A DNA stretch of 64,000 nucleotides, from NCBI GenBank assembly GCA_040954595.2, contig CM082588.2:8354844-8418843 (forward strand), given 5' to 3'. This document shows positions 39 to 60,404 of the stretch, piece after piece. The position numbers were made by a program, and so were the translations under genes. This DNA is from Balanoglossus misakiensis. Its lineage: Eukaryota; Animalia; Hemichordata. The notes under the pieces are model-generated. The model did not search any database, was not told the DNA's origin, and was given only the letters and a program-made list of their open reading frames with translations. The stretch's first letter is position 1. The number at the start of each line of letters is the position of its first letter.

Positions 39-3000
39 CTTCAATGTTTTTGTCTACAGGTGGCACAATTGTAGTTTTCGTTTCCTGAAGTTCATCGATA
101 GTCTGACGTAACTGTCGGACGTTGTCTTTCAGCTTGGTATTTGTCGTGAGTAGTTTGGAACTTTGAGTTTCACTGCTTTCCAGCATTTCCTTCAGAAGCC
201 CACGTGACTGCTCACTTTCTTCACTTTTCCCCTTAAGGATCGTATATTCCATCTTCTTGGATTGTAGCAGTTCTCGAATCTCCTTGATTTCGTTAAAGAG
301 CGAAGTGATGACAGAGAGATAGTTGTCTGTCGAGATTTGTTCCAAAACACGAGCAGCTCCTTCTTTTGAAAAAGATTCCGCCAGAATCTTGTCCGACTCT
401 TTCGTGCCAGTGTTCAAGATGTTGACGCCATTTTGATTGACGAGTCTCTTCAGTTCTGATGAAATGTTATTAAACATAGTTTATAGCAAAATGTTATTTA
501 TGATCTATGATGTAATCCCCTTTGCAATTAATTGGTCGGAGGCCGTGGAATGCAAATAAATGGGCACTATCTATTTTACTTCACGCTCGATGTGCAAATC
601 AATGGCAGAATTGTACAGACCTATCTTTAAAATACTTCAACAAGCAGCCAACTAAACCAAAACATTCCCTTTAGAACAAATTTCAGCAGCAAGCTTATTT
701 ATTCTGATTAGTTGAATAGACTATTGTTTGGCCAAATTCCCTGTCTAAATGTTTGTGAACACTAACCTTCTCTTTCATATCTGAATGTCTCTCCCTCTGG
801 TAAGGTGATCGAAGACATCTGTTGGCTATCCAAAATCAAACACCGTCTGATTCCAAGGACACCAAGAACTTCTGGCCGTTCATCCAACAACGAAGACAAC
901 TGTAGAGGGTGCTGTATTTTTATCAACAGGACGATTGGTGTCTGTGTGTCTCCCACATCAACATCTATCTCAGCTTCCAAAGTGCCGGAACCACCAAGTA
1001 GTTTTGATAAACCGATTCTGTTTTGGCGTGTGGCATAGACAGACCTGTCAGTCTCCACGGCAACAACTGCGCTCTTGTCATCTACATTCACAAACGACAC
1101 AGAGAAAGGCTCAATAAATGATATGTATTCTCATAAAAGAGAATTTTTCAACAGAATTGTTTCTCCTGCTTGAATTCTGAAGTGCCTATGAAAAGAAAAC
1201 TGCACACTCATAGCATGTCAGCTAGAAACAAAAGCAGTCACAGAAACACTCAACTTGAAAAATAAGTCTTGCCCTATGCTGTCATATCCATAAATAGTAA
1301 TTACCTTGTTTAGTCAACATTTCTCCAGGTTCTGTACACTTTTCTCCACACAAACCACAGACCTCAGAAGATTTCACTTCCGGTACATAGCCTATCAAGA
1401 TTAAAGTTACGAATTCGTCATCTCATGACATATATTCTTGATATTAATTTGCAATGTTAACAATGATCCATAAGAACTTGATTGTACAAGTGAAAAGTTT
1501 TATAAGGGGTCGGTTCGTTTTGGCTAAAGTGCAATGCATTTACATGAATCTCTTTCAAATAGGCCTTAGGCATGGATACAGGAACTTGCACGTACACGTA
1601 TTCTGCTGAAAAAAACACACAACACAGATACGAGTCTAGAACTGAAATAAACCAAAGGTTTCAGGTAAAATCCTTCAATTCAAACGAATACACAATGTTC
1701 GGCAACATTAACTAAATTGTTAAAATATTAGACTTGCCTTCCTTGAAGTACTTCAATTCTGCCAGACATAGTTGATATCTCCATGTCTCTATGGTTGTCT
1801 TCAGGTTAACGTCAGATACATTGAGTTTGTGGAGCAATTCGGGTGTGATCATGTCTGCCTTAAACAGATCTCCCAGTATCCCTTGCCTGTAGTCACGCCA
1901 TAGTCTCTCCACTGACTTTGATGTCTGGCAAGTCAATACAACATTTACACTACCCCGCTTAATTTCTTCAATTTGTATGTTTCCAACACTGTTGAGATGC
2001 TCTTTGACTTTTGGTAAATCGTTTCCAGAGCTGCTGTTGTTGATGATCTCGTTTTCGATGAGTTCAACCTGGTCTGGAGTCAAGGTTGGACCAGACACCT
2101 TAAGCTTGACTACGATTTCTCCTGAAATAACATACAATGAGTACATTGTATTAGAATTGACATGTGTTGTACAGGATTCGAAGCAAGACCAATCACAAAA
2201 TTTCAAGGACTAAATCCACATCCGCAATGGATGTTTTAATTGCCCAGATAAGAATTAAGCGAGTCCCTATTAACTTGATCTAAACACAACACACAAACAA
2301 TACAAACAAACAAACAAACAAACACAAAACAAAACAACACAAAACAAAACAAACGCATAGACGAACATTTCCATTGCTCAACATGTGGAGAGACATCCTC
2401 GGGTACAAATGTGTTCTTAATTCAAACCTCATTTTGTTTCATTACACAATTGTATTCTACATCATATATTGGCAAATGCATCATCCAATTATATGACGAA
2501 CGATACAATAACAAGTATACAGGGACGAGTGAATATGAGCAACTATAGTTCCGTGCGTTAGCTCTCTGTGCAGGGGCCACATGAACTATTTCATTTGGTT
2601 TCCAATTTGAATATTGAATGAATATTGTTTTATAAGGACAGACAAGTAAATTTCACTAGGCGTACAAATGTACCCAATCAGCACCCTTACCCAGATTCGA
2701 GTTGAGAGTGTGTTGAACTTCATGCGTCTGTCCACTGTCAGGATTTTGCTGGCCACCTTCACCATTATTCAGATCACCATTTTTGGACTCGTTGTTGCTA
2801 GGGACATCTTGAACCTGCTTTTCTGCTTGGCTGCCACCAGAATTCACGGTTTGTTGGTCTTTAAGTGTTTCCTCCTTACCTAGTGCATAATAAAAATACT
2901 ACAACTTACAAAACTTGATTTTAGCTGTAATTTATTTATAAAACAGACTATCAATTCACCCAACAGCTGTAATATTTCTTAAGGTGACCATCATTTATTA

Positions 3001-7800: not shown

Positions 7801-9624
7801 TTGCTATTATGTGTTTACCTCAACATTGATTCTGTCGCCCAGTTTTGTTTACAAAATCTCAATCAATTTGACATCAGAGCAGAACGTTTTCTATTCTGTG
7901 TCATTAAATTTTACAAATATCATCAAATAAACGCATAATCTTATGACTGTACAAGAAATGGCGTGACATGAAAATTACATTACATTGTATTTGTTTTCAA
8001 ATTACATCACTGTATGAAAGAAAAGTCAAAAATTTCGCCATAGATCACCATGATTGTTTTATCACTATATAGAAGAAGTTCACATTTAGTGTTTATTGTC
8101 CTAACTGGATATCTTGAATAACATGAAAGTTTCTGTGCAAATAAATGCAATACAACAAACGCGACAAAACAAATAAGACAATACACCCTGCACCAGACCT
8201 CAAAATGAACCAATGACAATCGAGATATTTACTCTGAAAACCAATCATATCAAACTGTTGCCAAAACAGGCAATGAACAAATTGGTACTGCGACACTATA
8301 GTTTACACCACAAGAAAACTGCTGATGGTAGCTATGATGTGTCACACGGAAAACTCAATATGTCACACATCACATTCTTTAGTTATCTGAAATGTTCAAA
8401 TACTAGTAGTATGGTACAATGGGTATGACTGATCAAATACTTTACACTTGCGTGTCATTATCTTTTCAAACTTGAAAATCCCAATTACCGCCAGCCATCG
8501 AAATACACTCACTGAATTGTAAACCACCGATCGTTGGTCTACAGCATGTGGATAGAAAAATGTACAACATGGCAAAGAACAGTAAGGGCTTACAAGAAGA
8601 GTATACGAATCTGCAGAGGGCGCTATTTTCTCCTGTACCCAAACTCAACAAGAGTGGACACAGCTTTCCTTTCAAATGAGTCGTGATACCTTTTGTCATC
8701 TCTTTGTTCTTACATTTTGCTGAAAATGAAAATTTTCTGTGACAAAATGAATTTCTTTAAAGTAAAGTATTATTTTTTTTTTGCAATTTTTAAAACATAT
8801 GCATCATTCTAAAAATTGAAAAAACAACAACAGTTGAACACATTCTACAACTGTACGGACACAAAAGAAAACTATCTGCATATTGGCGAAATAAATCCAA
8901 AAGTAACGAACCGTGCAACCACAAAAAACTAATTCAAATTCATCTCCTGTAGAGCACACACGTGGTTATATGACAAACAATTTATATATCCACACACACA
9001 AAATTTACTGTGTTATAGGGAAAGCCAAATAACAAAGCCAAATAACAAACTGTAAATAATATATATATAACGCTTGGAAACATTGAAAGCTCGAATTGCC
9101 AGTTTTCAAGACAACTCCAAAATGTTGCGAACAGTCAGAATGAACATTTCAGGAAACATTTCTAAAATAACACTTTTCACTGCAGTGTATGCAATTGGTT
9201 GAAAAGTGACGTAAGCAACCACAAGATCATTACAAATAATTCGTAAAACACACGGTAATGACACATCCCTCCATTGTTGATAGAAAACGATGTATGCTCA
9301 CTAATTTGACTGACCAAGCCACTTTCCCCAGCTATACTCAAAGCCACATATGAACGTGCACATTATTGTGAACTTTCAATCTTTGAAGGATGGGTTTCGG
9401 TTGATTGGAACGTACAAAATTCATGACAAACATATTATTACTATGAACAAACAATATTAGGCAAAGTTACTGAAATGACATTCATTTTGCTGACGGAGGC
9501 CTGTAGTTGGTTATCATGCTTGAGGCTCTCAGGAAATCGTTCTTTTTTGGTATCCCTAAAAAAATTATTTCGTCACTTTCTAATCAGTAATTTTCTTTAC
9601 TGCTGATTACAAGTTAAATTAGTT

Positions 9625-9897
9625 TTATTCCTGTTCAGATAACCTTGCTTTGTCCTCCTGTGCATACTTGGCCCATTTATACTCCTGACCACAGGCTTCT
9701 GTTATGTTTAGGTATTTCAGTGCATTGGCAGAGTCAATTTGTGCTTGGTAAACACGGGCAAGACTATAACATGCCCATAGTATTTAATATAGGTCACGGA
9801 GGGTGCTGATCAGATGGGTATACATTTCACATGCATCACTGTAGTTATTCAATAATGTGAGGACATGAACCATGAAAAGAGATGCGATGGGATACAA
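9625..9897 (-). pseudogene. Degenerate tandem duplicate of the last TPRs of the IFIT-like exon
   Basis: Reads LYPIASLFMVHVLTLLNNYSDACEMYTHLISTLRDLY*ILWACYSLARVYQAQIDSANALKYLN..., homologous to about 9985-10210, with one in-frame TAA. Confidence 0.8.
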
Positions 9898-9910: not shown

Positions 9911-11581
9911 TTATTGCTGATTGCAAAATTGGACCCGTTTCTTTTGTTGAGGGGGCTTTGTTTTCGCTTCCCGTGCCATTTTAGCCGAGGCATACTCCAG
10001 ACCACACTCTTCTGCTTTGTTTAGGTATTTCAGTGCATTGGCAGAGTCGCCTTTTGCTTGGTAAACGTGGGCAAGACAATAACACGCCCATGATATGTAG
10101 AATGGGTCACGGAGGGTGCTGATCAGATGGGTATATATTTCACATGCATCACTGTACTGTTTCAAGTGTGTGAGGGCAACGGCCTTCAAGATAGAAGCAG
10201 TGGGATACAAACCACCTGCATATGCAACTGCTTTGTCGGAACACTCTATGGCTTTTAGCAGGCACTGACGATTGCTTTCTATCGGATTGTGTTCGTATTT
10301 GGCCGCGTATGTGACTCCTAGGTTCCACGCGAAATATGGATTGTCTGGATCTTGTGCCGCAGCATTGTGAATAACTCGCTGTGCTTTTTCGAAGTCTCCA
10401 ACATTGCTGTGGCAGTAATAAAGACGTGCAAAAACCACCGTGAAATTGGATAAAGGGGTTAATTCGAGTGCTTTCTGAATGAGTTGACCTGCTTCTTCAT
10501 AGCGACCTTCATCGAGTGACAGATTACTTAAAAGTGCCAAAGCATAGCTGTGATTGGCATTTTTCTTAAGAACTCTCTCAAGCAAATTTCTTTCTTGTGC
10601 CATTATTTGTAAAGCTTCCTGACATTTTGAATCTCCATAGACACGAGCACGTTTTGCTAAAAGAATGAATGCTTGCCAAAGCATCCAGTCTGTTTGTTCT
10701 GGAAGTTCTACTAAAGCACGATCAAAGCTATCAATTGCCTCATCACACGTTTTTTTGTGAAAATAAGCAAGAGAGACACCCTTGTGAGCATATACATACG
10801 CTTTCTGTTTCCCTGACAATTTCTCAAGTGACAAAGTTGCTATCAACTTAAGCAATTCATCAACTCTGTCCATCTCACCCGACATGAAATGAACCCATGC
10901 TTTATCTGCAAGAAGAACCAACTTATCACCAAGTGGACCATCGTCGTCACCATCACAGCTGTCAAGTTCTTTCTGGTTGTCGGTGAGGGCGTCATCAAAC
11001 CACTTCAAAGCGGCACTTGGATCTCTCTTGTCTTCCGATCTCAGTTTTGACAAGTACATGTAACCTTTCATGGCTTTATGGGGAACTGGAGAGAACACCT
11101 GGTTGTGATGTTTAAGTCTGTCGTCCAATCTGCACTGTAAGAACTACAGTACATGGAAAGGCATGTTACAGTGTCATGTGAAAACCCAGGTGCTTGTACA
11201 GATGCTTTGTTGGTATTTTATTGATTGTTAAAAAGGTAGCTAAAAACGATAAGATCTCACGTCATACGAGCGCTCACGCTATGTTCGGGCCTATACCCCA
11301 CTGACACATAAACGGATATTTTTATGTTTCAATTTGCGTCATTATTAACATCTGAGAGGAATACACATTTCTTTGGTTTTCGTGACATTTCAACAAGTCA
11401 GATACAGCTGCTATGAACCGCTTTAAAATTTCATAAACCTATACTTCAAATACGCAAATAAATGTCCTCACCTCAAGACTCTCATCACAAAATTCTTCGA
11501 GTTTCCAGGTAAAGTGGCAGGGAAACCTCTGCAGTATTTCTTCATAGGACTTTGCTGTATGCTTCAATCCCGTGTGTGTAA
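9911..11581 (-). CDS. IFIT-like (interferon-induced tetratricopeptide repeat family) TPR module, two exons
   Basis: Carries the IFIT hallmark 'LQRFPCHFTWKL' (vertebrate IFITs have CHFTW) and 'LVLLADKAWVHFMSG' (cf. LVTxGNxAWVYYHMG), followed by multiple TPRs (e.g. 'YEEAGQLIQKALELTP'). Confidence 0.8.
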
Positions 11582-14500
11582 CTGAAAATTCTATTGAATA
11601 GTAAAAACAAAGTTTGGGTGATAAACTGATTTTAATTTTAAATTGAGATTGGTCTATTGAAAAAAAGCCTAGGCTTTTTTTATTATGGTATTCCAACATT
11701 CTGGGAGAGAATTGGGTTATATCAACCGGTGAATGACCTACTATTAAGCGCCAAAGCGTAAATTGTCACCCAAAAGAAACTAAAACAACCAAAATATCCG
11801 TCGTCAATATTGAGAGATTTCGTTCCTTCTGCTTTTTGAAGCGACACCCCCTTCGGAAAATCAGTTGAAAGTGACATAAACTAATAATTTAGTTTTAAAA
11901 TAAATATGCCTGACCATGTTAAGTATAATGATTTTGCAAGGAATGTCTATTGCAGGAAAGAGAAAAAAAACTGAAACGGAAGGTTTTCAGACCGAACTCT
12001 GAAATTCACTTTTGCTCCTAGACACAAGATTGTAATAGAAAATAAATACGGCCTATAATCGAACTTGTTGGGAGCACATTTTGTTTATTTGGAGCAGATG
12101 ATATAACGGATGGATGGATATGTTGCAGATAACTACATTACCTTCGATGTTTTTGTCTACAGGTGGCGCAGTTGTAGTTTTTGTTTCCTGAAGTTCGTCG
12201 ATAGTCTGACGTAACTGTCGGATGTTGTCTTTCAGCTTGGTATTTGTCGTGAGTAGTTTGGAACTTTGAGTTTCACTGCTTTCCAGCATTTCCTTCAGAA
12301 GCTCACGTGACTGCTCACTTTCTTCACTTTTCCCCTTAAGGATCGTATAATCCATCTTCTTGGATTGCAGTAGTTCTCTAATCTCCTTGATTTCGTTAAA
12401 GAGCGAAGTGATGACGGAGAGATAGTTGTCTGTCGAGATTGGTTCCAAGACACGAGCAGCTCCTTCTTTTGATAAAGATTCCGCCAGAATCTTGTCCGAC
12501 TCTTTGGTGCCAGTTTTCAAGATGTTGACGCCATTTTGATTGACCAATCTCTTCATTTCTGATGAAAATGTGATTTAACATAGTTAGCAAAATGTTATTT
12601 ATGATCGATGTGATGTAACCCCCTTTGCAATTGGGTCGGAGGTCGTGAAATGCAAATAAATGGGCACTATCTATTTTACTTTACGCTCGATGTGCAAATC
12701 AATGGCAGAATAGTACAGACCTATCTTTAAAGAATACTTCAACAAGCAGACATCTAGACCAAACCATTCCCTTTAGAACAAATTTTAACAGCAAGCTTAT
12801 TTGTTCTGATTAGTTGAATAGAGTATTGTTTGACCAACTTCCCTGCCTAAATGTTTGTGAACACTGACCTTCTCTATCATATCTAAATGTCTCTCCCTCT
12901 GGTAAGGTGATCGAAGACAACTGTTGGCTATCCAAAATCAAACACCGTCTGATTCCAAGGACACCAAGAACTTCTGGCCGTTCATCCAACAACGAAGACA
13001 ACTGTAGAGGGCGCTGTATTTTTAACAACAGTACGATTGGTGTCTGTGTGTCTCCCACATCAACATCTATCTCAGCTTCCAAAGTGCCGGAACCACCAAG
13101 TAGTTTTGATAAACCGATTCTGTTTTGGCGTGTGGCATAGACAGACCTGTCAGTCTCCACGGCAACAACTGCGCTCTTGTAATCTACATTAACAAACGAC
13201 GCAGAGAAAATCTCAATAAATGATATGTATTCTCATAAAAGAGTATTTTTTCAACAGTATTTTTTCTTCTGGTTGAATTCGTAAGTGCCTATGAAAAAAA
13301 ACACTTCAAACTCATAGCCTGTCAGCTAGAAACGAAAACAGTCATATGAACACTCAACTTGAAAAATAATTCTTGTTCTATGCTTTCATCCATAAATAAT
13401 TATTACCTTGTTTAGTCAACATCTCTCCAAGTTCTGTACAGTTTTCTCCACACAAACCACAGACCTCAGAAGATTTCACTTCCGGTACATAGCCTATAAT
13501 GATTAAAGTTACGAATTCGTCATGACATATATCGTTGATATCAATTTGCAATTTTAACATTGATCCATAAGAAATTGAGTGTACAATTGAAAATTTAGAC
13601 ATGGTGTCAGTTAGTGCAAAGCATTCACATGAAATTCACATGAAATCACTTTGAAATGGGTATGAATACAGGAACTTGAAAGTACACGTGTTCTGCTTGG
13701 GGAAAACACATAACACAGATACGAGTCTAGAACTGAAAATAACCAAAGGTTTCAGGTAAACTCCTTCATTTCAAACGAATACACAATGTTCGGCAACATT
13801 AACTAAATTGTTAAACTATTAGACTTGCCTTCCTTGATGTACTTCAATTCTGCCAGACATCGTTGATATCTCCATGTCTCTATGGTTGTCTTCAGGTTAA
13901 CGTCAGATACATTGAGTTTGTGGAGCAATTCGGGTGTGATCATGTCTGCTTTAAACAGATCTCCCAGTATCCCTTGCCTGTAGTCACGCCATAGTCTCTC
14001 CAGGGACTTTGATGTCTGGCATACCAATACAACATTCAGACTGCCCCGCTTGATTTCTTCAATTTGTATGTTTCCAACACTGTTGAGATGCTCTTTGACT
14101 TTTGGTAAATCGTTTTCAGAGCTGCTGTTGTTGATTATCTCATTTTCGATGAGTTCAACCTGGTCTGGAGTCAAGGTTGGACCGGATACCTCCAGGCTAA
14201 TCTCGATTTTACCTGAAATAACATCACTATATTAGATTCAATGTTTCTGGCTCTTTTTCTAAGTTACTAATTCAGAGTTACTTTTTCGAAATGAAGGTAC
14301 ACAATATGCAAAACGTCTGTTTATACAGTTTTAAAACTTCAATTATTTCAACTTTAATAACCCCTATCTATTTCATCTTCTGAAATAAGAATCTCCATTC
14401 CCATGATAGTCAGGAATGCGAAGGTCTTCAGTTATAGAGGAGAACCATTTGATTTCTGGAAAGAGGGTGGAGTATGTCACCAGCTTGTTCAGTCACTGTA

Positions 14501-42998: not shown

Positions 42999-43336
42999 TT
43001 AATCTATCTCTGAATATGGCCTTTTTTTCCCACGTCGTTTTTCTGATTGCAGTTTGTTTACACACTCCTCCACCAATGAGACTAATGCTGGTAGTTCCAT
43101 GTTTTGAAACAATTCCTTTAGAAGTGTTAAATCGTCATTGCTGAAATGACCCTTCTCTTTCAAACAGTAAAATATATCTGAGGGAGATTCCAAATCCTGC
43201 AATTCTCGTTTTGGTATGAAGTCTTCTCGTAACAGGCCTCTGAGATCACGCTCATCCTTTCTGTTTAAACGCTTGTCAAGTGTCATGAAAAGGATATTCA
43301 GTGGATTTAATTGTGTTGTTTTAAAACACTGTGAGT
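42999..43336 (-). CDS. DED terminal exon, copy 4
   Basis: Paralog of 25373-25707, with the basic tail KRRGKKRPYSEID. Confidence 0.8.
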
Positions 43337-45543: not shown

Positions 45544-45574
<31 letters not shown>

Positions 45575-48500
45575 ATTTACCTCTAATATTATAGCCTTTT
45601 CATCTTCTACGGCATCTTCTGGAACTTCGATGCTTATCCGTTCGTCTTTTTTTGAGGTAAATTTTCCACCTTCTTTGCTGATATCAAATGAGTCTTTATA
45701 AGGTCTTGATATTGCGATGAAAAGTGAAAAATGGCACACTTCTGCCTTGATATGATTGTTTTCCTGAATATGAATCAACATTTAATGGAAACACTTTTAC
45801 TTTTAGTGTGTGGTCAGAAACTTCGTGAACAACTGATTAGCACTTTTGATTGATGGTGGTATATCTGCTATTTTCTCAGAGACGGTGTTTTGTTTTGCTA
45901 AATGGAAGGTCAGTAGGCTGTAATGACTGACAATTTACATGTCCATGGATACATACATGCAAATATCCCATACAAATATATATTTACTGAAATGCAATAA
46001 TGGTAAAGTTATAAGTAGTAAAACTTGACTGTGTAGATCTGTGATATATGTACCATACGTACTTCAACAGTTTTCAACTCTTCCCATGTTTCACCATTTT
46101 TGCTTGTCAGGATTATCTGTTCTCTCTCAAACGGCTGAACATTTAAACACTTCCTCACAAGGTAGACTGGTTTCTTTAGTGTAATGTGATCTGCCTCAAT
46201 ATCAAGGACATCTGACTGATACCATTCAAAGTCTGCAAGAGGGACCTTGGTGACGTTATGGTTACATGTGACCAATAATGTTGTGTCTTCTTCTACACAT
46301 GCTGATGGGACTTCGAGTGAAAATCCACATGGTAATTTGTAGGAACGTCTTTCCTTTAATGGAAAAGGAAAAAATTATATTACAAAACCAGAAATGGGGC
46401 TGGAAATCACCCCCCCTCCCCATTGAATGCTAAACTGTAACTAAATTCTGTCATAAAACTCGAATGCATTTGCAAGCAAAAGCGAAGTTCCAGAGACCAG
46501 ATCTATTTTATATAATATTTCAAGGCCTTCAAAAATGAACAGTTTGAATAGAAAAAGCAATGCATATATGCTAACCTGTCGGGTGCATGCACTGTTGCAA
46601 GCTGAAAATAGTACATATCATAGTTTCACAATTTGTAGATGTCCATTGAAAATTGTTTCAACCCATCTAGAATACTGTTTAAATACAATTTATCAACATA
46701 ATCAGTACGTGTGGTATGTATTGCAAACAACCTATTCAGAAAGAATACTTTGTTGTACAAATTCATTAAAATACATCAATTTTACGTCAATCATCATGCC
46801 TACCTGATTAGCAGCAATAAGCTGAAGCAATCTTTGGTCTTGCATATCCTCTGAAATGCAGATATGTTAGGGTAGTAGTTGTATTTACTAAGATATGATT
46901 ACTGTTCCTGTTTTAACATAATTCCAGCTTGAAATTGTAAATTTCTCCGGTTTCAAGTCTGTGAGACTTGCATGGTTTTTTTCACTTGATATGCACTGAC
47001 CTTCTACATATTTCTGCACGTCATAATACCCTAATTGACTTGTTATTATTTGTGAATTGATCTGTTGAAGATGCAGAATAAAACATCCACTTTTTGAAAT
47101 AAACATTTCTGTAGTAATTACTGAGCTCAGAATCCCCTCAAAGTATATATTTTCAGAAAGATTAGATATAGGGAAACATTTTGGTTATTTCAGTGTGATC
47201 ATTGTTTACACAACTATCACAATCATAACAAATGGATTAGGTCGGATTAGAATATATCAATTCACAAAAGTGACAGGAATATACAGGTTCACATCACATC
47301 ACACCGCATCACATCACACCACATCACATCACATCGCATCGCATCGCATCGCATCGCATCACATGTATATAGCACAATTATTTCGCAATGAACGTAAATT
47401 ACTGGCAAGAAAACCAAAGTGAAACGCAATGTTTTTGATTGACTCTGTACTTAATTTTTGCTCATGGACCCCACCGTATACTGTAATAGAAGAACACTCA
47501 GTTCCCAGCCTTCGATGGTCAAGTATATTGTCAGAATTGAAGATATAGGCAACACCAATCTGATTAAAATCATATGAGAAGATAGGCGCTAGTAGACCAT
47601 GAGCCAGTAGGGGTTTACCCCCCCCCCCCCCGGGGGAATTTTTGAGACAATGTTTTTCTGAAAGCCTATCATATACTGAGTAAAATTCCCTTTGTTTGCC
47701 ATCTGGGCACCGGGGCGTTTTCGAGTTATTGGCTTCTAAATTATATTGGGTAACGTATGTAGAAAAGCCTAAAAGTGCATATAAATTGACGTAGGGGGTA
47801 AATTAGTCTTGTAAAATATTGTCTCTCTGAATGTATACCTTGAACAACAGGGAAGTATTTGGTATCAAAAGAAAGCTTAGTAAACAAGCTTTCCATTAAT
47901 TACAAAATAAAAGTGATATGACAAATCATGACATCATAGTGACGTCATAAGTCAAAATACCCTTACGAAAATGGTGTTCTGTTCACCTATAAATGTGAGG
48001 TTTTGCAAAACACGTCTCTGAGCAATTGTACTGTGATGTGTTTGGTATCAACAGAAAGCTGATTGAGTAAAGTATCTAATTATTGCAAAAAATTGATATA
48101 ATAATCAATTACGTCATCATTACGTCAAACTTCCAAGTACCCTTACCAATTAGTGACTATGATGACAAGTTATTACCCTAGGAGATAGGTGCCTTTAAAT
48201 AAAAAAAATTGGTAAGGAAGGTTTGTGAAGTCCATTCTATGTAAAAAATAGTGCTGATTCCAAAAAAGGCAGTCTTATTGACCCCACCCAAGACAAAATT
48301 GCCATTTTGGCACTTTTTAACCCAAAAAAGGTCATTTTTAGAACACACTAAAAACACACTGTTTTCGTCACATTCGAAGATCTGATGACATATGATATGC
48401 CTGTTCTATGTAAAATTTGGTTGATATTACGAAAAAAGCAGTCTGACTGACCCCAAACGAGACAGAATTGCCTTTTTGACCATTTTTTGCACAAAAATGT

Positions 48501-51500
48501 CATTTTTAGACAAAACTTAAAACACACTCTTCTCTTCATATTGATTGATTTGATGATATATGGAAAGTCAATTCTATGTGTAAAATGGTGACTATAAAAC
48601 ATAAAGCAGTCTTTTTGACCCCAATCAATACAAAAATGCCATTTTTGGCCACATTTTTGAGGTCAAAAAGGTCATTTTTACAAAAAAAACTAAAAACAAA
48701 CTGTTTTTTTCATATTCAGAGAACTGATTATGTATGAAAAGTCCATTCTATGTAAAAAAAAAATCTGATTGACCCCATTCTAGTCAAAATTGCGTTTTTG
48801 GCAATTTATTGCCTAAAAAGACCTACTAAAGACAAATTTATCATTTTAAACATTTTCTAGAAAAAAAATGTTTGCAACTAAAAATAAATAAAAGTCCATT
48901 CTATCTTAAAAGTAGCGATTTTTCCAAAAAAGCACTCTTACAGACTCCACAGAGGGAAAAATGCCATTTTGGCCACTTTGCTCAAAAAAGGTAACTGTTT
49001 GAAACTTCTTTCTTTATTTTCAGAGATCTTATGATGTACGGAGAAGGTCCAATTTTGTTGAAAGGGAGCCGATTCCCAAAAAATTCTTTTCAGCCCTACA
49101 AAATTGTCATTTTGGCCATTTTTGGTCAAAAAGGTCATTTCAAGAAAAAATGAAAACAAGCTGTTTTCTGCGTATTTAAATGTTTGATTATGAATGGAAA
49201 GTCCATTTTTTGCAAAAAATATGCTGATACCAACACAACAGTCTTATTAAGAACCCACTCAATACAAAATTGCCACTAAGCCATCTTCTAGTCAACAATT
49301 GTCTTTTTACGAAAACAACATAATAAATAACCTTCTCCGTACATCATAAGATCTCTGAAAATAAAGAAAGAAGTTTCAAACAGTTACCTTTTTTGAGCAA
49401 AGTGGCCAAAATGGCATTTTTTCCCTCTGTGGAGTCAGTAAGAGTGCTTTTTTGGGAAAAATCACTACTTTTAAGATAGAATGGACTTTTATTTATTTTT
49501 AGTTACAAACATTTTTTTCTCTAGAAAATGTTTAAAATGATTAATTTGTCTTAACTAGGTCTTTTTAGGCAATAAATTGCCAAAAACGCAATTTTGACTA
49601 GAATGGGGTCAATCAGATTTTTTTTTACATAGAATGGACTTTTCATACATAATCAGATCTCTGAATATGAAGAAAACAGTTTGTTTTTAGTTTTTTTTTG
49701 TAAAAATGACCTTTTTGACCTCAAAAATGTGGCCAAAAATGGCATTTTTGTATTGATTGGGGTCAAAAAGACTGCTTTATGTTTTATAGTCACCATTTTA
49801 CACATATAATTGACTTTCCATATATCATCAAATCAATCAATATGAAGAGAAGAGTGTGTTTTAAGTTTTGTCTAAAAATGACGTTTTTGGGCAAAAAATG
49901 GTCAAAAAGGCAATTCTGTCTCGTTTGGGGTCAGTCAGACTGCTTTTTTCGTAATATCAACCAAATTTTACATAGATTAGGCATATCATATGTCATCAGA
50001 TCTTCGAATGTGACGAAAACAATGTGTTTTTAGTGTTTTCTAAAAATGACCTTTTTTGGGTTAAAAAGTGCCAAAATGGCAATTTTGTCTTAGGTGGGGT
50101 CAGTCAGACTGCTTTTTTCGTAATATGAACCAAATTTTACATAGAATAGGCACATCATATGTCATCAGATCTTCGAATGTGACGAAAACAGTGTGTTTTT
50201 AGTGTTTTCTAAAAATGACCTTTTTTGGGTTAAAAAGTGCCAAAATGGCAATTTTGTCTTGGGTGGGGTCAGTCAGACTGCTATTTTCGTAATATCAACT
50301 AAATTTTACATAGAATAGGCATATCATATGTCATCAGATCTTCGAATGTGACGAAAACAGTGTGTTTTTAGTTTTTTCTAAAAATGACCTTTTTTGGGTT
50401 AAAAAGTGCCAAAATGGCATTTTTGTATTGATTGGGGTCAAAAAGACTGCTTTATGTTTTATAGTCACCATTTTACACATAGAATTGACTTTCCATATAT
50501 CATCAAATCAATCAATATGAAGAGAAGAGTGTGTTTTAAGTTTTGTCTAAAAATGACTTTTTGGGCAAAAAATGGTCAAAAAGGCAATTCTGTCTCGTTT
50601 GGGGTCAGTCAGACTGCTTTTTTCGTAATATCAACCAAATTTTACATAGAATAGGATGTCATCAGATCTTCGAATGTGACGAAAACAGTGTGTTTTAGTG
50701 TTTTCTAAAAATGACCTTTTTTGGGTTAAAAAGTGCCAAAATGGCAATTTTGTCTTGGGTGGGGTCAATAAGACTGCCTTTTTTGGAATCAGCACCATTT
50801 TTTACATAGACTGGACTTCACAAACCTTCCTTACCATTTTTTTTTATTTAAAGGCACCTATCTCCTAGGGTAATAACTTGTCATCATAGTCACTAATTGG
50901 TCAGGGTACTTGGAAGTTTGACGCAATGATGACGTAATTGATTATTATATCGATTTTTTGCAATAATTAGATACTTTACTCAATCAGCTTTCTGTTGATA
51001 CCAAACACATCACAGTACAATTGCTCAGAGACGTGTTTTGCAAAACCTCACATTTATAGGTGAACAGAACACCATTTTCGTAAGGGTATTTTGACTTATG
51101 ACGTCACTATGATGTCATGATTTGTCATATCACTTTTATTTTGTAATTAATGGAAAGCTTGTTTACTAAGCTTTCTTTTGATACCAAATACTTCCCTGTT
51201 GTTCAAGGTATACATTCAGAGAGACAATATTTTACAAGACTAATTTACCCCTTACGTCAATTTATATGCACTTTTAGGCTTTTCTACATACGTTACCCAA
51301 TATAATTTAGAAACCAATAACTCGAAAACGCCCCGGTGCCCAGATGGCAAACAAAGTGAATTTTACTCAGTATATGATAGGCTTTCAGAACAACATTGTC
51401 TCGAAAATTCCCCCGGGGGGGGGGGGGAGATAAACCCCTACTGGCTCATGGTCTATAGTGATCGTTTTGGCTATTCTGTTCTCACGGATTTGGCTGTTCT

Positions 51501-54500
51501 GTTCTCTGCGTAACCAGTCTTGGCTATTCTCGGGTGTACGAGCCATTCGAACAGAACAGCCAACCCTAGATGTACATACCTTCGATATTTCTAACTTTGG
51601 GTTCATCTTTTAGTTCGACATTTGTCATTGTTAGTTTTGAACTTTGGTTTTCACTGCTTTCCAGCATTTCTTTCGGATGCTGACATGTCTGCTCAGTTTC
51701 TTCACTTTTCCCCTTAAGGGTCGTATATTCGATCGTCTTGGATTGTAGTAGTTCTCTAATCTCCTTGATTTCGTTAAAGAGCGAAGTGATGACAGAGAGA
51801 TAGTTGTCTGTCGAGATTGGTTCCAAAACACGAGCAGCTTCTTCTTTTGAAAAAGACTCTGCCAGAATCTTGTCCGATTCTTTGGTGCCAGTGTTCAAGA
51901 TGTTGACGCCATTTTGATTGACCAATCTCTTCATTTCTGATGAGAATGTGATTCAACATTGTTATCAAAATGTTATTTATTCTCGACATGCAAATCAATG
52001 GGAGAATAGTGCAAACCTGTCTCTAAGATCATAATTCCATATGCAAGCAGATTACCCAAAACAATCCATTTAGAACAATTTTCAGCAGTAAGCTTACTTA
52101 ATTCACGGTTACTAGAAGAAGACGGTTAGGAAACTCTATTGTTCGGAAGGTGTGAACGAGGTGTTAGCTAGGAGAGTACATGTCCAAACCGCTATGTGGG
52201 GTTGTATTGGGGAACGTAGCTAATTTTTGAACCCCTTCATCTGCCCTTTTTCGTCAGAGTACAGCGCCACTTTTTTTGTACGAGTTCCATGTAGGCTTAT
52301 GGAGTGCACGGTCATAGTCTGTTGGGCTTGCGACACTCTACCATTGTTTCTTGGGTGGTTAACTTAAAATCCAGATTCAAATAGCGTCGAATTTTGAACC
52401 CCTAGAATTCAACCCTGATGGTCGCATTTCTGTTTTTTTTTTTTTAAATATATTTAGATATTTTACACCTTTTTGTATTGCATGGGCTATTTCGTTTATT
52501 CCAATTGGAATATTTCGTTGAGATTGCATACCCATTTCGATACAGTCGTTAACATTATCGATATAGCCTTTGGCGGCCATCTTGTTTGTTTTGGTTCGCA
52601 TCGAATCTCTAGGGCACAGTCAAGACAAAGAATGTATGGCTTCATCATGTCCTTGAAAGTTCAAAATTGTCATAAATGTGCTGTGACTTTATAAATTATC
52701 CACTCTCTGTTCTGTTTTCCTCAAATCTGGTGGTATACGTACTGTGCGTGCAATCAATTCCGTAAACATGAGTATGGTTTGCTTTGGATTGTAGGGGTAA
52801 TGACGTCATTTTGACCGAGCGGTCAGTTATTCTGTCTGTTTATTCGTATGGCCAGGCTCGTTAGCACCTGATATCTTTCGTTTACACTAAGTGTTTACCG
52901 AGGCGAACATCTAACAATGGAGAAAAAATAGTTTCCTAACCGTCTTCTTCTAGTAACCGTGCTTAATTTAAAACAATTTGTGGGCCTATTTCAGTGAGAA
53001 AAATATCGTAGATCATTTTTTGAACGGAAGGTAAAAAATTCTAAATTTAGCTACCAACTACATGTATGTAGTGAACACGGCTTTATTGGAGCTCTGTACA
53101 TACATTGGTAATAAAGGAGTCCAGGAGTCTTCATCGTTAACATGAGCGTGTTCATTTGTCCAATACAATATTGTTTGGCCAAATTCCCTGCACTATGAGT
53201 TTTATGTTGACTTTAAAGGAATGTTTGTGAACACTGACCTTCTCTATCAAATCTGAACGTCTCTCCCTCAGGTAAGGTGATTGAAGACAACTGTTGACTA
53301 TCCAAAATCAAACACCGTCTGATTCCAAGGACACCAAGAACTTCTGGCCGTTCATCCAACAACGTAGACAGCTGAAGAGGGCGCTGTATTTTTATCAACA
53401 GTACGATTGGTGTATGTGTGTCTCCCACATCAACATCTATCACAGCTTCCAAAGTGCCGGAACCACCAAGTAGTTTTGATAAACCGATTCTGTTTTGGCG
53501 TGTGGCATAGACATGTCGATCAACCTCCAAGGCAACCATTGCACCATTGTCATCTGCAGGCATAACATTGTATAAAGATCGATAATAGGCAAAATATCTG
53601 GAATTGTATGTATTCTCATTAAAATGAGCAAATGTTTTACTTAATAGTGCGGGAGTATACTTTTTATGGAAACATTTCAAACAAATTTATTATCAGCTAT
53701 AAGCATAAGAAACCTTTGAGTGATTTTGGTGTTTCGGTTTATTGAAGCGACATTCCCTTGGGAAAATCAGTTCAAAGTGATGCAAACTAATAATTTAGTT
53801 TTAAAATAAATATGCCGGACCATGTTAAGTATAATCATTTAGCATGGAATGTCAATTGACGGAAAGAAAAACAAAGCGAAACATAAGTTTTTTAGATCGA
53901 ACTCTGATATTCGCTTTTGCATCTGAACCCAACAAGTCTGTAATAGTAAATAAATCCGGTCTATAATCAAAGTTGTCAGGAGTACATTTTGTTTCATTTG
54001 GAGCAGATGATATAACGGATGCATGGATATGTTGCAGATAACTGCATTACCTTCGATGTTTTTGTCTACAGGTGGCGCAGTTGCAGTTTTCGTTTCCTGA
54101 AGTTCATCGATAGTCTGACGTAACTGTCGGATTGTGTCCTTTAGTTTGATGTTTTCATCCATGGTCGTACGTAACTCTTGATTTTCCTCTTTTACTTTGA
54201 TATTTATCATGGTTAGTTTTGAACTTTGGTTTTCACTGCTCTCCAGCAATTCCTCCAGACGCTGACATGTCTGCTCAGTTTCTTCACTTTTCCCCTTAAG
54301 GATAGTATATTCCGTCTTCCTGGATTGTAGTAGTTCTCGAATCTCCTTGTGTTCGTTAAAGAGCGAAGTGATGACAGAGAGATAGTTGTCTGTCGAGATT
54401 GGTTCCAAAACACGAGCAGCTCCTTCTTTTGAAAAAGATTCCGCCAGAATCTTGTCCGATTCTTTGGTGCCAGTGTTCAAGATGTTGACGCCACTTTGAT

Positions 54501-57500
54501 TGATAAGCCGCTTCAGTTCTAATGAAAATAGTAACATGTGATTCAACATTGTTATCAAAATGTTATTTATTCTCGACATGCAAATCAATGGGAGAATAGT
54601 GCGAACCTGTCTCTAAGATCATAATTCCATATGCAAGCAGATTACCCCAAACAATCCATCTAGAACAATTATCAGCAGTAAGCTTACTTAATTTAAAACT
54701 ATTATGTTGGCAATTGGTGGGCCTATTTCAGTGAGAAAAATGTCGTGGATCATTTTTTGAACGGAAGGTAAAAAATTCTAAATTTAGCTACCAACTACAT
54801 GTATGTAGTGAACACGGTTTTATTGGAGCTCTGTAAATACATTGGTAATCAAGGAGTCCAGGAGTCTTCATCGTTAGCATGAGCGTGTTCATTCGTCCAA
54901 TAAAGTATTGTTTGGCCAACTTCTCTGCGCTACGATTTTTCTGTTTAATGTTATGTTGGTGAATACTAACCTTCTCTATCATATCTGCATGTCTCTCCCT
55001 CTGGTAAGGTGATCGAAGACAACTGTTGGCTATCAAAAATCAAACACCGTCTGATTCCAAGGACACCGAGAACTTCTGGCCGTTCATCCAACAACGAAGA
55101 CAACTGTAGAGGGCGCTGTATTCTTATCAACAGTACGATTGGTGTCTGTGTGTCTCCCACATCAACATCTATCTCAGCTTCCAAATTGCCGGAACCACCA
55201 AGTAGTTTTGATAAACCGATTCTGTTTTGGCGTGTGGCATAGACAGACCTGTCAGTCTCCACGGCAACAACTGCGCTCTTGTCATCTACATTCGCAAACG
55301 ACACAGAGAAAGGCTCAATAAAGGATATGCATTCTCATAAAAGAGTATTTTTCAACAGTATTTTTTCTTCTGGTTGAATCTTTAAGTGCCTATGAAAAAA
55401 AAACCTATAAACTCATAGCCTGTCAGCTAGAAACAAAAGCAGTCATAAAAAAACTCAACTTGAAGAATAAGTCTTGTTCTATGCTGCCATCCATAAATAG
55501 TAATTACCTTGTTTAGTCAACATCTCTCCAAGTTCTGTACTTTTTTCTCCACACAAACCACAGACCTCAGAAGATTTCACTTCCGGTACATAGCCTATAA
55601 TAATTAAAGTTACGAAATCGTCATGACATATATCGTTGAACGCATTTGCAATGTTAACATTGATCCATAAGAACGTGAGTGTACAATTGAAAAGTTTGAC
55701 AAAGTGTCAGTTAGTGCAATGCATTCACATGAAATTCACATGAAATCACTTTGAAATGGGTATGAATACAGGAACTTGAAAGTACATGTATTCTGCTGAA
55801 AAAAAAACCATACAACACAGATACGAGTCTACAACTGAAAATAACCAAAGGTTGCAGGTAAAATCCTTCAAATTAAACGAATACACAATGTTCGGCAACA
55901 TCTAATAACTAAATTGTTAAACTATTAACTTGCCTTCCTTGATGTACTTCAATTCTGCCAGACATCGTTGATATCTCCATGTCTCTATGGTTGTCTTCAG
56001 GTTAACGTCAGACACATTGAGTTTGTGGAGCAATTCGGGTGTGATCATGTCTGCCTTATACAGATCTCCCAGTATCCCTTGCCTGTAGTCACGCCATAGT
56101 CTCTCCACTGACTTTGATGTCTGGCATACCAATACAACATGCAGACTGGCCCGCTTGATTTCTTCAATTTGTGTGTTTCCAACACTGTTGAGATGGTCTT
56201 TTACTTTTGGTAAATCGTTTTCAGAGTTGCTGTTGTTGATTATCTCATTTTCGATGAGTTCAACCTGGTCTGGAGTCAAGGTTGGACCAGATACCTCCAG
56301 GCTTACTTCGATTTTCCCTAAAATAACATCACTATATTAGATTCGTCAGTGTTTTCCATCTCTTTTCCGAAGTTACTGTTTCATAGTTACTTTTTCGAAA
56401 TGCAGGTACACAATATGCAAAATACCGATTTTCGATTAGACCGAACAGAGCTACTGATCGCCAATAAGCGATTTTTAAAAATCGTGACAAGTTGCATCCA
56501 TTCCTTCTTATATTGTGATTCTTGCAGTCAGATCGCACGGTACTCATTAACATATGTAAACGAAGGAAAGTACTTCAAACCATGTAGCCGTTAGAGTGGG
56601 CTCCGCTGACGGGTCGCGAAATAGGCCATTTTTTACTCGATATTATAGAGCTGTTTTCAGGCGATGTGGATTATTTTAAGACAAAACCGTGGATTCACTT
56701 GAAGGTAGGTATACTGGATTGTTACTGAATGATTTTTTGGCAACTTCTGTCGTGTAGTTTCTTTGTAATCACGAAATTTCTGACGACTGTGAAAAAACAC
56801 ATAGCGTTGACATCCTCTCGATTATTTTTAAGCTGACCGTTACACATGGATTTTACCACGAAATTTCAAACTTTTATCAAAATATAGACATCAAACTCCC
56901 TCTCTTTGAGTTTTCATTCACTTCCAAGCGTTGATAGTGACGATATGACCAGTTCAATTTTGTTTACCTTTCAACCTGTGAGCGCCATTTTGTTTACTTT
57001 TCAACCCGTGAGCGCCACTTCTTCTGCAAAATGGCGGGAGAAGACAGCATGCATGTGTACGTATATACGCTGGCGCAGACTTGATCCTGGGTTGTACCAG
57101 CTGCGTAGTTTTCCCTCCTCACTCGTGCGAAGAAATTTTGATTGCTGATATGTACTCCCGAGTTTTACTAAACCCTAACAATTATTTTATGAAAGTTTGC
57201 CCGTCAAGTAAACTCACTTTTTTAATTTTATGGTTCTTTCAGATTGACGAAGACTAATTTTTGTGGTTGTGGTGTTGCAGTTGACTGTTTTATTTTAGCT
57301 GTCTGAGTTGACAATTTATTCTGTATTTTATTGTATTTTTAACTCTTTATCCTGTATTTTGTAGTAGTATTTTGAACACTGTTTAATAAATAAATTACTA
57401 TTATTATTATTTATCGACCCAATGCAACGATGACAAATCGCTCGCCTTCAGACACAAATGTTGTATTTATTGCATATATCATCAGCGAATAAAGGGAAGT

Positions 57501-60404
57501 GGTTTCGAAGTTACACTTGGCATTTTCGAAAAGTCTACTTATATCCCACGATGCGGAGAGAAAAAAAATACAAAATACGTCAGCTGAGCTCCTCACGTAC
57601 GGTAAACCTGGCATGCTGTGCATGGGTAATCAAATATTTGTCTGTAGCCCAATGGTAGGCGTACGGCGTGGAGCACCCGGGCGCGGCACTCGTGCGATTG
57701 ATCGATGTTGTGTCGAAATCAGGCCAGTAATTAAGTTAAAACTTGGCTGATATGTTACCTTAGAGTGTTATACACTATCCAGTAACTTTCTCTTGACAAG
57801 TGTCTTTTAGAAACTGTTTTCCCCACGATAAACGTGTCGTTTCACGAGCAACGCAACACTTCCGTATTTACAAGCCTAACATGGAGAGGTCAACGTAGGG
57901 CCTATACTTCCGGGTCATGTCGTCGAAGTACATCGATTATTTTTAAGCTGACCGTTACACAGGCATTTCGAATTAATTTCTTTTCACGGATGTTGGGACC
58001 GATATTAGACCTATCTGTCACGAAAACTTGGTTAACTTCCGAGGTCGTCTTCAAATGATTTTTGGCACGTTTGTGGACGTCTCTTCCGAGGTCACCAACA
58101 TACCACCGAAAACACGCTAAAAACTACTACTATTACCGACAGATTCTCATAAAATTTACGTCTGCAGTGCATAATGGGAATCACTTTCGAAATTTATCGA
58201 GCTAGCATGGTATTTTATTGTACCACGGAGTGTAAAAATCAAGTTGAAAATCACCTTGAAAACTGGCCTATTGCCGTCTGTTTGAAAGTTAACGGTCGCT
58301 GGCTTGACGAACTTTCATATGCAAATGAGCACCGTGCGATCTGACTGTTGAAATATGTTAACTTTAATAACCACTATCTGAATTCATCTTCTGAAACAAG
58401 AATCTCCATCCTCATGATAGGCCGGTATGCGAAGGTCTTCAGTTATAGAGGAGAACCATTTGATTTCTGGAAAGGCGGTGGAGTATGTCACCAGTTTTTT
58501 TTCAGTCACTGTAGGCCTACAGCAGTTTTTTCGATGTCTGTCTACCTTTTACTTAAAGGCAAGCCAGAAGCAATTACATTTCCTCCTCATCATCATCTTC
58601 CAACAATTCTTCCTCCAAAAAACCCATCCACCCCTAGAAATCAAATGGTTCTCCCCTATTTGATTAGTTGAAATGGCAGTCAATTAAGCAACAGGATCTA
58701 GCCTACCCAGCTTAGATTTGAGAGTGTCCTCATGCGTTTGTCCAGCATCAGGATTTTGTTGGCCACCTTCACCAGTTTTATTCAAATCACCACTTTCTGG
58801 TCTATTGTTACTGGGGAGATCTTCAACCTGATTTTCTTTTTCGCTTCTACCGGAATTGGAGACTCGTTGTCCTTGGTCACGAACTGTTTCCTCTTCCCCT
58901 AGCGACAGGTGTGAAAAACTCAATTTACTATCACATTCACACTAATTGCACAAATGCTTCACATTTAAATTTATTCTGGTAAAACATTCAAATTAAAATG
59001 CATTTTATGCAACCGTAAATCACTGAGAGGCAAACATGCCGCTGTTAATATGTTAATATAGTGTCATATTCTCATAACTGTGTGTTGTCCAAAGCAACGT
59101 ATACAGTGCGTGCAACATTCTCTCTATCGCTATTTACCTTTGGAAGGATCTTCTGCAGGGTCATCGCATTCTGTAGGGCAAAATACACATTCCAACAGCT
59201 TGGTGTGATGGTCAGCAATAACACCACTCTCAGCGGATATTTGTAGTGCTGTCTTCAGTTCTTGTGCAGCATTCTTTGCACGGCCATATTCACTTAGGAT
59301 ATCCATGATAGCACATACCCACTTTTCTTTTCCGCTGTCAAGACTTTCGCTCGGTCCCACGTCACAAGTTTGTACACCAATGGAGGGGAAGTGTTCCTTT
59401 AGGAATGTTGCCAGACCTGATTGCTCTGGATGTATTGTAGGCACACCAGCAGTGCAGGATAGAAGACCGAATACACCAAATGGGTCTCCTTTAGTTGTGC
59501 AATTTATCACGATGTCACACTGCTTCAAATCGTTCTCTAACTGGCTCATCGATGCGTTGTTGGGATACATGTGGATATTTAATCGATCGGACATTGTCAT
59601 CCTCTCAAGCCTCTGTTGATATTCCTCACACGGTTCAGAGGATACACATCCTCTTAACTTCCACTTGATTTGCGTAGAGAAATACTTGTATATGTCAGCA
59701 ACTTTCCCCATGCCACGCGCTACTGCTTCAAATTCTTCCAGGTCACGTAGCCCTGTTATGGTATGTACAGATAGGACATTGATGGTTTTACGTAAACCGG
59801 TTTTATTCACGGAAAGATTGCCGACGTCTTTCTTCATGCAGGGAATGTATGCAACGTGCTCCACTTGTGAGTTTAGCAAAGGTTGAATCTTCACCTCAAA
59901 CTCCTCATATACTGATGGACCAACAGATAAAATGACCGAGGACATCGCTGCATATTCCAGCATTTCATCCTCTTTGGCAGCCAAGTCTGAAGGATCTAGG
60001 TTCATGTTTTCGGGTGTGTCAGAATAGACAGGAACAAAACTCGCAGATGGGAAAACCTCTGCCTGAATACTCTTTGCTGTACTGGCAGTTCCATCCTTAC
60101 AAGCAGTACCATATACGGTCGTAATTGGGTGATATTTCTTCAACTGTTGAAAATAGTGTTCGTGTAAAATTAACCAATCACTTGTCGGCTTCCCGTCTTT
60201 GATTGGGAGAATCAGCTCCACTCTATGACGCCTTGCTTCTTCAACTTCTTCATCAGAAGCCTGTAACGCCATGAAGTAAACCTGGTTGTTTCCACCAGCA
60301 AGATCGATGGCCAATTGTCTCTCAGTAAGACATGTTGCAATATTGCGACTTCTCGGCCACCACTCCTCTCCGACAACCAACAAACGATTCTTCACCTTAG
60401 CCAT
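42999..60404 (-). CDS. Array copy 4: GT4-like - TRADD-N-like - CxxC - (X - coiled coil)x2 - ZU5-ZU5-UPA-DED (about 1675 aa)
   Basis: Exons 60404-59138, 58898-58707, 56317-55934, 55594-55508, 55285-54971, 54518-54051, 53553-53239, 51936-51580, 46601-46576, 46353-46063, 45763-45581, 45296-44995, 44760-44292, 43683-43650, 43336-42999. Total 5028 nt, all phases compatible, no internal stop seen. Confidence 0.75.
44292..46353 (-). CDS. ZU5-ZU5-UPA exons, copy 4
   Basis: Near-identical to 26668-28935; HFS at 45725-45733. Confidence 0.75.
45545..45573. repeat. (ATG)n microsatellite in intron
   Basis: Direct reading; shorter in the paralog at about 27897-27908. Confidence 0.9.
47593..51455. mobile_element. 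3.86-kb non-autonomous foldback DNA transposon (Academ-like termini, tentative) in an intron of copy 4
   Basis: Termini TAGACCATGAGCCAGTAGGGG...CCCCTACTGGCTCATGGTCTA with a 3-bp TSD TAG. The empty site 'ggcgctagtgatcg' is at about 30126. Arms 47593-49048 and 49330-51455 are inverted, and the right arm has internal tandem duplications of about 170 bp. Confidence 0.9.
52104..52961. mobile_element. 858-bp non-autonomous TIR element, 7-bp TSD (P-element-like, tentative)
   Basis: 32-bp TIR CACGGTTACTAGAAGAAGACGGTTAGGAAACT with TSD CTTAATT on both sides. Empty sites 'agcttacttaatttaaaac' are at about 30922 and 54681. Confidence 0.85.
55934..56317 (-). CDS. TRADD-N-like domain exon, copy 4
   Basis: 384-nt phase 1-1 exon; the GS motif is changed to AS. 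Confidence 0.7.
56525..58347. mobile_element. 1.8-kb TIR element with 3-bp TSD (TTG), possibly containing a nested element (taggcca about 56622 ... tggccta about 58270)
   Basis: CAGTCAGATCGCACGGTACTCATT ... AATGAGCACCGTGCGATCTGACTG flanked by TTG on both sides. Absent from the paralogous intron of copy 2 (about 14315-14345). Confidence 0.75.
59138..60404 (-). CDS. GT4/GT-B glycosyltransferase-like domain exon, copy 4
   Basis: 1267-nt coding exon, near-identical to copy 2. Confidence 0.8.

Follow-up and report, generated by a model that had tools for sequence, protein, structure and literature searches.

The stretch analysed here (the window) comprises 64 kb of DNA from the hemichordate Balanoglossus misakiensis (GenBank assembly GCA_040954595.2, contig CM082588.2, positions 8,354,844 to 8,418,843), with 38% GC and not a single N. 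Mapping of splice sites revealed four copies of a gene cassette on the minus strand, arranged head-to-tail and with six exons in common (Table 1). In order, these exons encode a GT4-conflict glycosyltransferase domain (exon 1, 422 codons), a linker, a TRADD-N-like domain (exon 3, 128 codons), a mini-exon with a CxxC motif (exon 4, 29 codons), a predicted ferredoxin-fold domain (exon 5, 105 codons) and a coiled coil (exon 6). The cassette introns are phase 1 throughout, and the 3′ end of exon 6 reads NIE+G|gt, a phase-1 donor. In each of the four copies the TRADD-N exon ends at a GC donor (positions 1737, 13828, 32149 and 55933) and is followed by a GC-AG intron.

The initial annotation had described four head-to-tail copies of a six-exon cassette ending at this donor and joined to interchangeable tails. 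Arrangement and donor are as described, but six intact exons are not found in every copy. Copy 4 has eight cassette exons, with exons 5 and 6 doubled (55285-54051 and 53553-51580), and exon 6 of copy 3 is broken. Copy 1 is open for 886 codons up to the window edge, and its tail lies left of the window. In copy 2, the proposed in-frame join to an IFIT-like tetratricopeptide repeat (TPR) module holds: the cassette (887 amino acids, aa) continues from 12142 to 11581 into two TPR exons, giving 1331 aa without internal stop. A join to ZU5-ZU5-UPA-DED had been proposed for copies 3 and 4 and is open in copy 4, where the frame runs from 51580 to 46601 into a tail of seven exons (1675 aa without internal stop, 14 introns crossed). 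In exon 6 of copy 3, ~170 nt of foreign sequence (~30546-30380) with an in-frame stop stand in place of ~35 nt, a 4-nt frameshift follows the insert, and the NIEG donor at 30254 is unreachable in frame. Copy 3 is open (1367 aa) solely via a cryptic phase-1 donor, AAG|GTATAC, at 30543. The central proposal, in which one GT4/TRADD-N front is combined with different tails, is supported by the predicted joins of copy 2 (IFIT-like) and copy 4 (ZU5-ZU5-UPA-DED); the damage to copy 3, the internal duplication of copy 4 and the loss of GT4 active-site residues described below had been missed.

Table 1. Features of the window, with positions counted from its first nucleotide.
Feature	Position	Strand	Details
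Copy 1 cassette	39..4365	-	exons 4365-3099, 2879-2691, 2121-1738, 1391-1305, 1081-767, 455-39
Copy 2 exon 1, GT4-conflict	15141..16407	-	PF20706 E 3e-34
Copy 2 exon 2, low-complexity linker	14694..14885	-	
Copy 2 exon 3, TRADD-N-like with GS turn, GC donor	13829..14212	-	PF20694 21.4 bits, below cut-off
Copy 2 exon 4, 29-codon CxxC mini-exon	13407..13493	-	
Copy 2 exon 5, 104-aa domain, predicted ferredoxin/RRM-like fold	12869..13183	-	
Copy 2 exon 6, helical/coiled-coil, ends at phase-1 donor	12142..12558	-	
Copy 2 tail, IFIT-like TPR module, two exons	9911..11581	-	11581-11472 (CHFTW motif); 11134 or 11143 to 9911
Copy 3 cassette	30255..36554	-	exons 36554-35288, 35027-34833, 32533-32150, 31815-31729, 31514-31200, 30759-30255
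Copy 3 tail, 7 exons: mini-exon, ZU5-ZU5-UPA, mini-exon, DED	25373..29185	-	DED E 2.5e-10
Copy 4 cassette	51580..60404	-	exons 60404-59138, 58898-58707, 56317-55934, 55594-55508, 55285-54971, 54518-54051, 53553-53239, 51936-51580
Copy 4 tail, ZU5(HFS)-ZU5-UPA-DED	42999..46601	-	DED E 4e-11; exons in next row
Copy 4 tail exons	46601-46576, 46353-46063, 45763-45581, 45296-44995, 44760-44292, 43683-43650, 43336-42999	-	
Decayed tandem duplicate of last ~315 nt of IFIT-like exon, past stop	9582..9897	-	77% identity, in-frame stop
3.9-kb fold-back element, 168/169-nt tandem repeats	47593..51455	.	inverted arms 93-96%

Upstream of the cassettes, the DNA is alike among copies for 1-4 kb (4876-5786, 16595-20667, 36749-40308 and 60612-64000), and the cassette ATG sits just after an AG acceptor. 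The copies probably share a 5′ non-coding exon and a promoter in this conserved DNA. A longer exon 5 of copy 2, starting from the AG at 13288, was closed in all three frames, and the acceptor is that at 13183.

Although the initial annotation had not recognised family and architecture as described, genes of this kind are known from Kaur, Iyer, Burroughs and Aravind (2021, PMC8195603), who report GT4 before TRADD-N with variable C-terminal modules in cephalochordates, hemichordates and cnidarians. The available part of their Figure 4 source data lists GT4+TRADDN with TPRs, DEDx4, ankyrin, Bcl-2 or a transmembrane segment plus leucine-rich repeats (TM+LRRs), and also TRADDN+ZU5+ZU5+UPA+Death; one supplement, in its available part, holds 149 GT4+TRADDN rows. 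Two close relatives of the window GT4, XP_006811676 and XP_006814349, are rows of their table. The GT4-TRADD-N family and the variable-tail principle are therefore already described. The available passages of PMC8195603 make no mention of an inactive GT4, its available supplements hold no IFIT name and no UPA+DED or coil+ZU5 order, and we found no further paper on the family in the literature searched. What we did not find in print, and regard as new against that literature, are the IFIT-like tail, the order GT4-TRADD-N...ZU5-ZU5-UPA-DED and the likely dead GT4.

A HMMER search with exon 1 matched 310 proteins. The best 150 of these 310 were taken, and our relative counts rest on 152 proteins examined. 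The ten top-ranking matches looked up were all hemichordate proteins, as were the 17 clade-level relatives looked up, which bear ankyrin, NHL, Bcl-2 or IFIT tails. The published family is marked by lineage-specific expansions with variable C-terminal modules in marine invertebrates, and the window, with its two tail types, shows the same feature. The order cassette-then-IFIT recurs in G. talaboti XP_077977119 and in P. flava XP_070569242 and XP_070568966. Both P. flava proteins have the same NIE junction as the window, and the G. talaboti protein carries exons 5 and 6 twice, as in copy 4. Copy 4 is also colinear with relative P0001 (residues 9-1119 versus 9-1114). Word-index searches gave weak negatives: no longer protein matched the GT4 exon, no protein of similar length matched the IFIT exon, and the cassette region of relative P0002 matched 2 proteins only. 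Since three species agree on the cassette-IFIT order, an accidental fusion is unlikely, and we regard this fusion as very probably real.

Several lines of evidence identify the copy 2 tail as IFIT-like. Against the Atlas it scored 0.96-0.97, with IFIT clusters in all ten matches listed. For the model of the tail exon the top TM-score (0.62) belonged to IFIT5, other TPR proteins among the matches listed reaching at most 0.49, whereas by E-value generic TPR proteins outranked IFIT5. The module matches the tail region of P0001 (E 4e-99), and the P0001 tail aligns colinearly to human IFIT5 7-365 (E 4e-10), its best natural match in the PDB; the copy 2 module ends about one TPR before that of P0001. 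Both an IFIT-type N-terminus and colinear TPR sub-domains, by which IFITs are recognised, are present. The tail has no early in-frame start of its own (first Met at tail residue 59), and the 560-nt intron before it contains no ATG-donor first-exon candidate. The definition of IFIT genes as stand-alone two-exon genes with an ATG-only first exon (PMC3688568, in part) does not describe it, the module being fused in three homologues. A longer IFIT exon running into 9897-9582 was rejected because this piece is a decayed duplicate beyond the stop.

Liu et al. 2013 (PMC3688568), in the part available, confine IFITs to jawed vertebrates and report none in acorn worm or lancelet, and the literature searched, including the available parts of PMC4887208 and PMC6723221, revealed no report of an IFIT from an invertebrate. 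The presence of a homologue in three lineages of hemichordates challenges the published origin of IFITs with jawed vertebrates and interferon. Some invertebrate proteins bear automatic 'IFIT-like' labels, and earlier recognition outside the searched literature is possible.

The tails of copies 3 and 4 are 93% identical in amino acids over 507 codons. Pfam detects the DED in them (Table 1) but neither ZU5 nor UPA in the seven tail exon translations scanned. ZU5-ZU5-UPA is called because the joined tail matches the amphioxus protein P0124 (E 9e-23), in which Pfam finds ZU5 (E 3e-19) and which matches the ZU5-ZU5-UPA region of ankyrin-3 (E 4e-25); the call is thus transitive. Among the domain names initially proposed, GT4, DED and the TPRs of the copy 2 tail are called by Pfam and ZU5-UPA by homology only, while TRADD-N stays under the cut-off. 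An HFS motif follows the first ZU5 in both tails (residues 1245-1247 of copy 4), as at the HF/S self-cleavage sites described for PIDD (PMC3210808, in part). In the DED exon of copy 3, a small deletion behind the domain (25424-25373) makes the final residues differ from those of copy 4.

Whether this tail belongs to the cassette can be questioned. Only cassette plus IFIT might be a true gene, the ZU5-ZU5-UPA-DED units being separate genes or decaying by-products and copy 3 a pseudogene. The combination of cassette and ZU5-UPA-DED occurs in 0 of the 152 relatives, exon 6 of copy 3 is broken, and four weak ATG-donor candidates for a first exon lie in the 1069-nt intron before the copy 3 tail. 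Selection on the tail also appears weak: the ratio of non-synonymous to synonymous divergence (dN/dS) is 0.64 overall, with 1.5 for UPA and 0.85 for DED, both from a small number of changes, a pattern compatible with relaxed selection either on copy 3 or on both. However, copy 4 is open across all its introns, both tails keep a 26-nt adapter exon that leads from phase 1 to phase 0, neither has an early in-frame Met (the first is tail residue 205 in copy 4 and 164 in copy 3), and the intron in front shares homology with that of the cassette, as set out below. We consider separate ZU5 genes quite improbable and the ZU5-DED fusion probably real.

At the other end of the protein, exon 1 clearly belongs to the GT4-conflict family (PF20706, 119 and 114 bits for copies 2 and 3, cut-off 26), yet 0 of 7 active-site positions (GG, His, Arg, Lys, EX7E) are kept in any of the four copies, while all seven are intact in 55 of the 152 relatives. 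In the N-terminal Rossmann domain, the Gly-Gly loop and the His read RN and Ser in 4/4 copies; G, G and H are kept in 88, 103 and 106 of the 152 relatives, respectively. The pyrophosphate-binding Arg/Lys pair is replaced by Thr and Glu (with gaps in the alignment close to the Arg), and the EX7E donor-binding motif expected of an active GT4 reads D-x7-L, again in every copy. In the nearest clade the second Glu of EX7E is kept in none of 17 relatives. The roles of EX7E and of the Arg/Lys pair are taken from PMC8760489 (in part). Despite these replacements, the GT4 exon shows a dN/dS of 0.32-0.46 in all six copy pairs, indicating purifying selection.

Residue loss goes along with position in the protein. 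Four core residues were intact in 10 of the 59 GT4s followed by at least 150 aa versus 60 of the 86 C-terminal or lone GT4s (145 of 152 relatives scored; kin sequences are not independent). A quick tree of 88 of 156 rows, which omitted short rows, rows with gaps at positions used for scoring and 47 of the 87 better-conserved rows, groups the four window rows with P0152 and P0001 (support 93) inside a degenerate group of 21 rows (98). The split between degenerate and intact rows has a support of 71 and further degenerate groups are present, so a single origin of the loss is not shown. Judged by the residues lost, the window GT4 is likely a dead enzyme. A clade of proposed GT4 effectors is thereby suggested to be pseudo-enzymes, whose role would shift from attacker to sensor or cap.

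The opposite polarity has also to be weighed: the fusions could be real, with the tails as sensors, the IFIT one responding to foreign RNA and the ZU5-UPA-DED one serving assembly of a death complex, and GT4-TRADD-N as the common output, perhaps with altered chemistry. The GT4 is treated as an effector in the available passages of PMC8195603, IFITs bind RNA in vertebrates, the GT4 is under purifying selection, and an Asp is retained at the first position of its EX7E. Against this stand the loss of all seven active-site residues and the mostly C-terminal or lone position of intact GT4s. In addition, K150, R253, Y250 and Q288 of the IFIT5 5′-triphosphate pocket are replaced by Tyr, Val, Phe and Asn in the copy 2 module (hand-mapped via two alignments), and K150 and R253 are the strongest RNA-binding residues of IFIT5 (PMC9677429, in part). 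The DED, an output adaptor, counts against this polarity as well. Overall, we hold a GT4 output to be rather unlikely.

The remaining cassette domains fit the published family in part. Exon 3 reaches 21.4 bits against TRADD-like_N (PF20694, cut-off 23.7) but matches XP_006811676.1, a TRADDN-DEDD2 protein in the table of Kaur 2021, with E 4.8e-17. The TRADD-N uS turn motif (section 8 of PMC8195603) reads RGS in three copies and RAS in one. By homology and motif, TRADD-N with the uS turn follows GT4, as in the DEDD2 clade. A CxxC after TRADD-N is also found in relatives P0001, P0002, P0004 and P0152. Exon 5 had no Pfam match and no usable Atlas match. Its model, built with 8 sequences, has a predicted local distance difference test (pLDDT) score of 84 and a ferredoxin/RRM-like topology, and fold searches returned generic, unrelated folds (best Z 7.2). 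Homologues of exon 5 occur in P0001 (twice), P0002, P0152 and P0012, the last included in the profile. The copy in P0012 (P. flava XP_070546129, residues 717-811), a GT4-TRADD-N protein ending in an ankyrin-like stretch, is more distant, and weaker matches were seen in P0077 and P0031. Profile comparison gave exon 5 no support as a second TRADD-N (hhalign to exon 3, probability 0.1%), and neither of two fold searches had TRADD among the matches listed, 50 for the search with best Z 7.2.

From this evidence we lean towards the view that the array consists of hemichordate-type GT4-TRADD-N genes, each predicted to encode a single long protein, probably for immune signalling, whose pseudo-GT4 would cap an exchangeable tail. 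Besides the points raised in favour of separate ZU5 genes, a number of observations weigh against it. All exon joins are predicted from genomic sequence. The homologue models are automatic annotations in which over-joining is possible, and the P0002 model extends into the GT4 gene that follows. Past the exon-6 donor of copy 2, an AATAAA occurs at a distance of 52 nt. The IFIT-like module is not basic (56 K+R versus 60 D+E), and its triphosphate pocket has lost K150 and R253. An HF/S after each ZU5 is not found, the second ZU5 having ILS. Finally, one Glu of EX7E is expendable in some GT4 enzymes (PMC8760489, in part), and the Asp at the first position has to be set against a dead enzyme.

How the tails came to be exchanged is indicated by the intron after exon 6. 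The introns of IFIT-tailed copy 2 and ZU5-tailed copy 3 align with a score of 132.5 versus a maximum of 117 in 300 shuffles, and five control introns gave no alignment above shuffles; by this comparison the intron is homologous between the two copies. Read-through past the five exon-6 donors tested added 2-70 codons that are not conserved. Retro-copying has been proposed as part of the source of diversity in the family (PMC8195603, section 11). In contrast, the IFIT-like and ZU5 tails of the window keep introns of their own. Together with the homologous phase-1 intron, this argues for recombination inside the intron and not for insertion of processed transcripts. Exon shuffling at the DNA level is thereby indicated for this locus, in preference to retrocopying.

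GT4 codons 1-150 have a synonymous divergence (dS) of 0.06-0.13 across all pairs, while codons 151-422 fall into two types with a dS of up to 0.71. Exon 6 of copy 3 resembles the first version of copy 4 at its start and the second at its end. Judged from such patterns, the copies are mosaics. Part of the array could instead be two haplotypes assembled in tandem, with fewer true copies: the GT4 types alternate A-B-A-B, dS is 0.08 between copies 2 and 4 and 0.05 between tails 3 and 4, and introns are 92-96% alike, values that approach allelic levels in very polymorphic marine animals. But copy 4 pairs with copy 2 in its front and with copy 3 in its tail, exon number and tails differ, copies 1 and 3 have a dS of 0.23, and the window is without an N gap, so that we consider misassembled haplotypes highly improbable. 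In the mosaic history that we prefer, cassette plus IFIT would be the older form, since it is found in two other hemichordates. The ZU5-ZU5-UPA-DED tail would have arrived by DNA recombination within the phase-1 intron after exon 6, and gene conversion and unequal crossing-over may then have made the copies mosaics. At the level of single genes, this gives a testable account of the origin of architectural variety among the TRADD-N proteins of marine invertebrates.

The window also contains mobile elements and repeats. The fold-back element (Table 1) is inserted in copy 4, in the intron that separates exon 6b from the ZU5 tail, has TAG on both flanks and is absent from the matching copy 3 site. 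Directly after the exon-6 donors of copy 3 and copy 4b sits a ~115-nt piece (~30245-30130 and 51570-51456) that has short inverted ends and is flanked by CTAG on either side, resembling a miniature inverted-repeat transposable element. Intron 2 of copy 3 (32594-33590) has 163-nt inverted arms (94%) around low-complexity DNA. On the plus strand, three broken open reading frames (ORFs) at 21189-23207 resemble by eye ORF2 of a retrotransposon without long terminal repeats; the two that were scanned had no Pfam match.

An immune role of the array is probable. In the mechanism that we propose, and to which as a whole we give an even chance, the pseudo-GT4 would bind a ligand or an invader protein without turnover and form a cap that senses or gates. 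The change would be relayed by TRADD-N and the exon-5 domain, and the coiled coil would oligomerise. In copy 4, the tail may act like PIDD1, with self-cleavage at HF|S (residues 1245-1247) releasing a ZU5-UPA-DED fragment whose exposed DED could recruit a FADD/caspase-8-type partner. In copy 2, an IFIT-fold clamp may bind RNA or protein, probably not via the triphosphate pocket of IFIT5. Only tentatively do we extend this to the idea that hemichordates hold a true invertebrate IFIT branch behind a clade-wide pseudo-glycosyltransferase sensor, with a recombination-socket intron swapping effector tails. If true, this would be an NLR-independent, germ-line-shuffled innate receptor system, and the origin of IFITs would move back to the deuterostome ancestor.

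Compared with known systems, the window genes share with the family of Kaur 2021 the order GT4-conflict, TRADD-N and variable C-terminal modules, and differ from it by a GT4 without active-site residues and by the extra exon-5 domain. With vertebrate IFITs (IFIT5, IFIT1, IFIT2) the copy 2 tail has the CHFTW N-terminal motif and the colinear TPR sub-domains in common. Unlike these, it sits behind a cassette and has an intron after the CHFTW exon. The tails of copies 3 and 4 resemble PIDD1, the ankyrin/UNC5 supramodule and the FIIND of NLRP1/CARD8, in which ZU5-ZU5-UPA precedes a death-fold domain, with HFS after the first ZU5. They differ in having a DED instead of a DD or CARD, in a second ZU5 without HFS and in a front made of GT4-TRADD-N instead of leucine-rich or ankyrin repeats.

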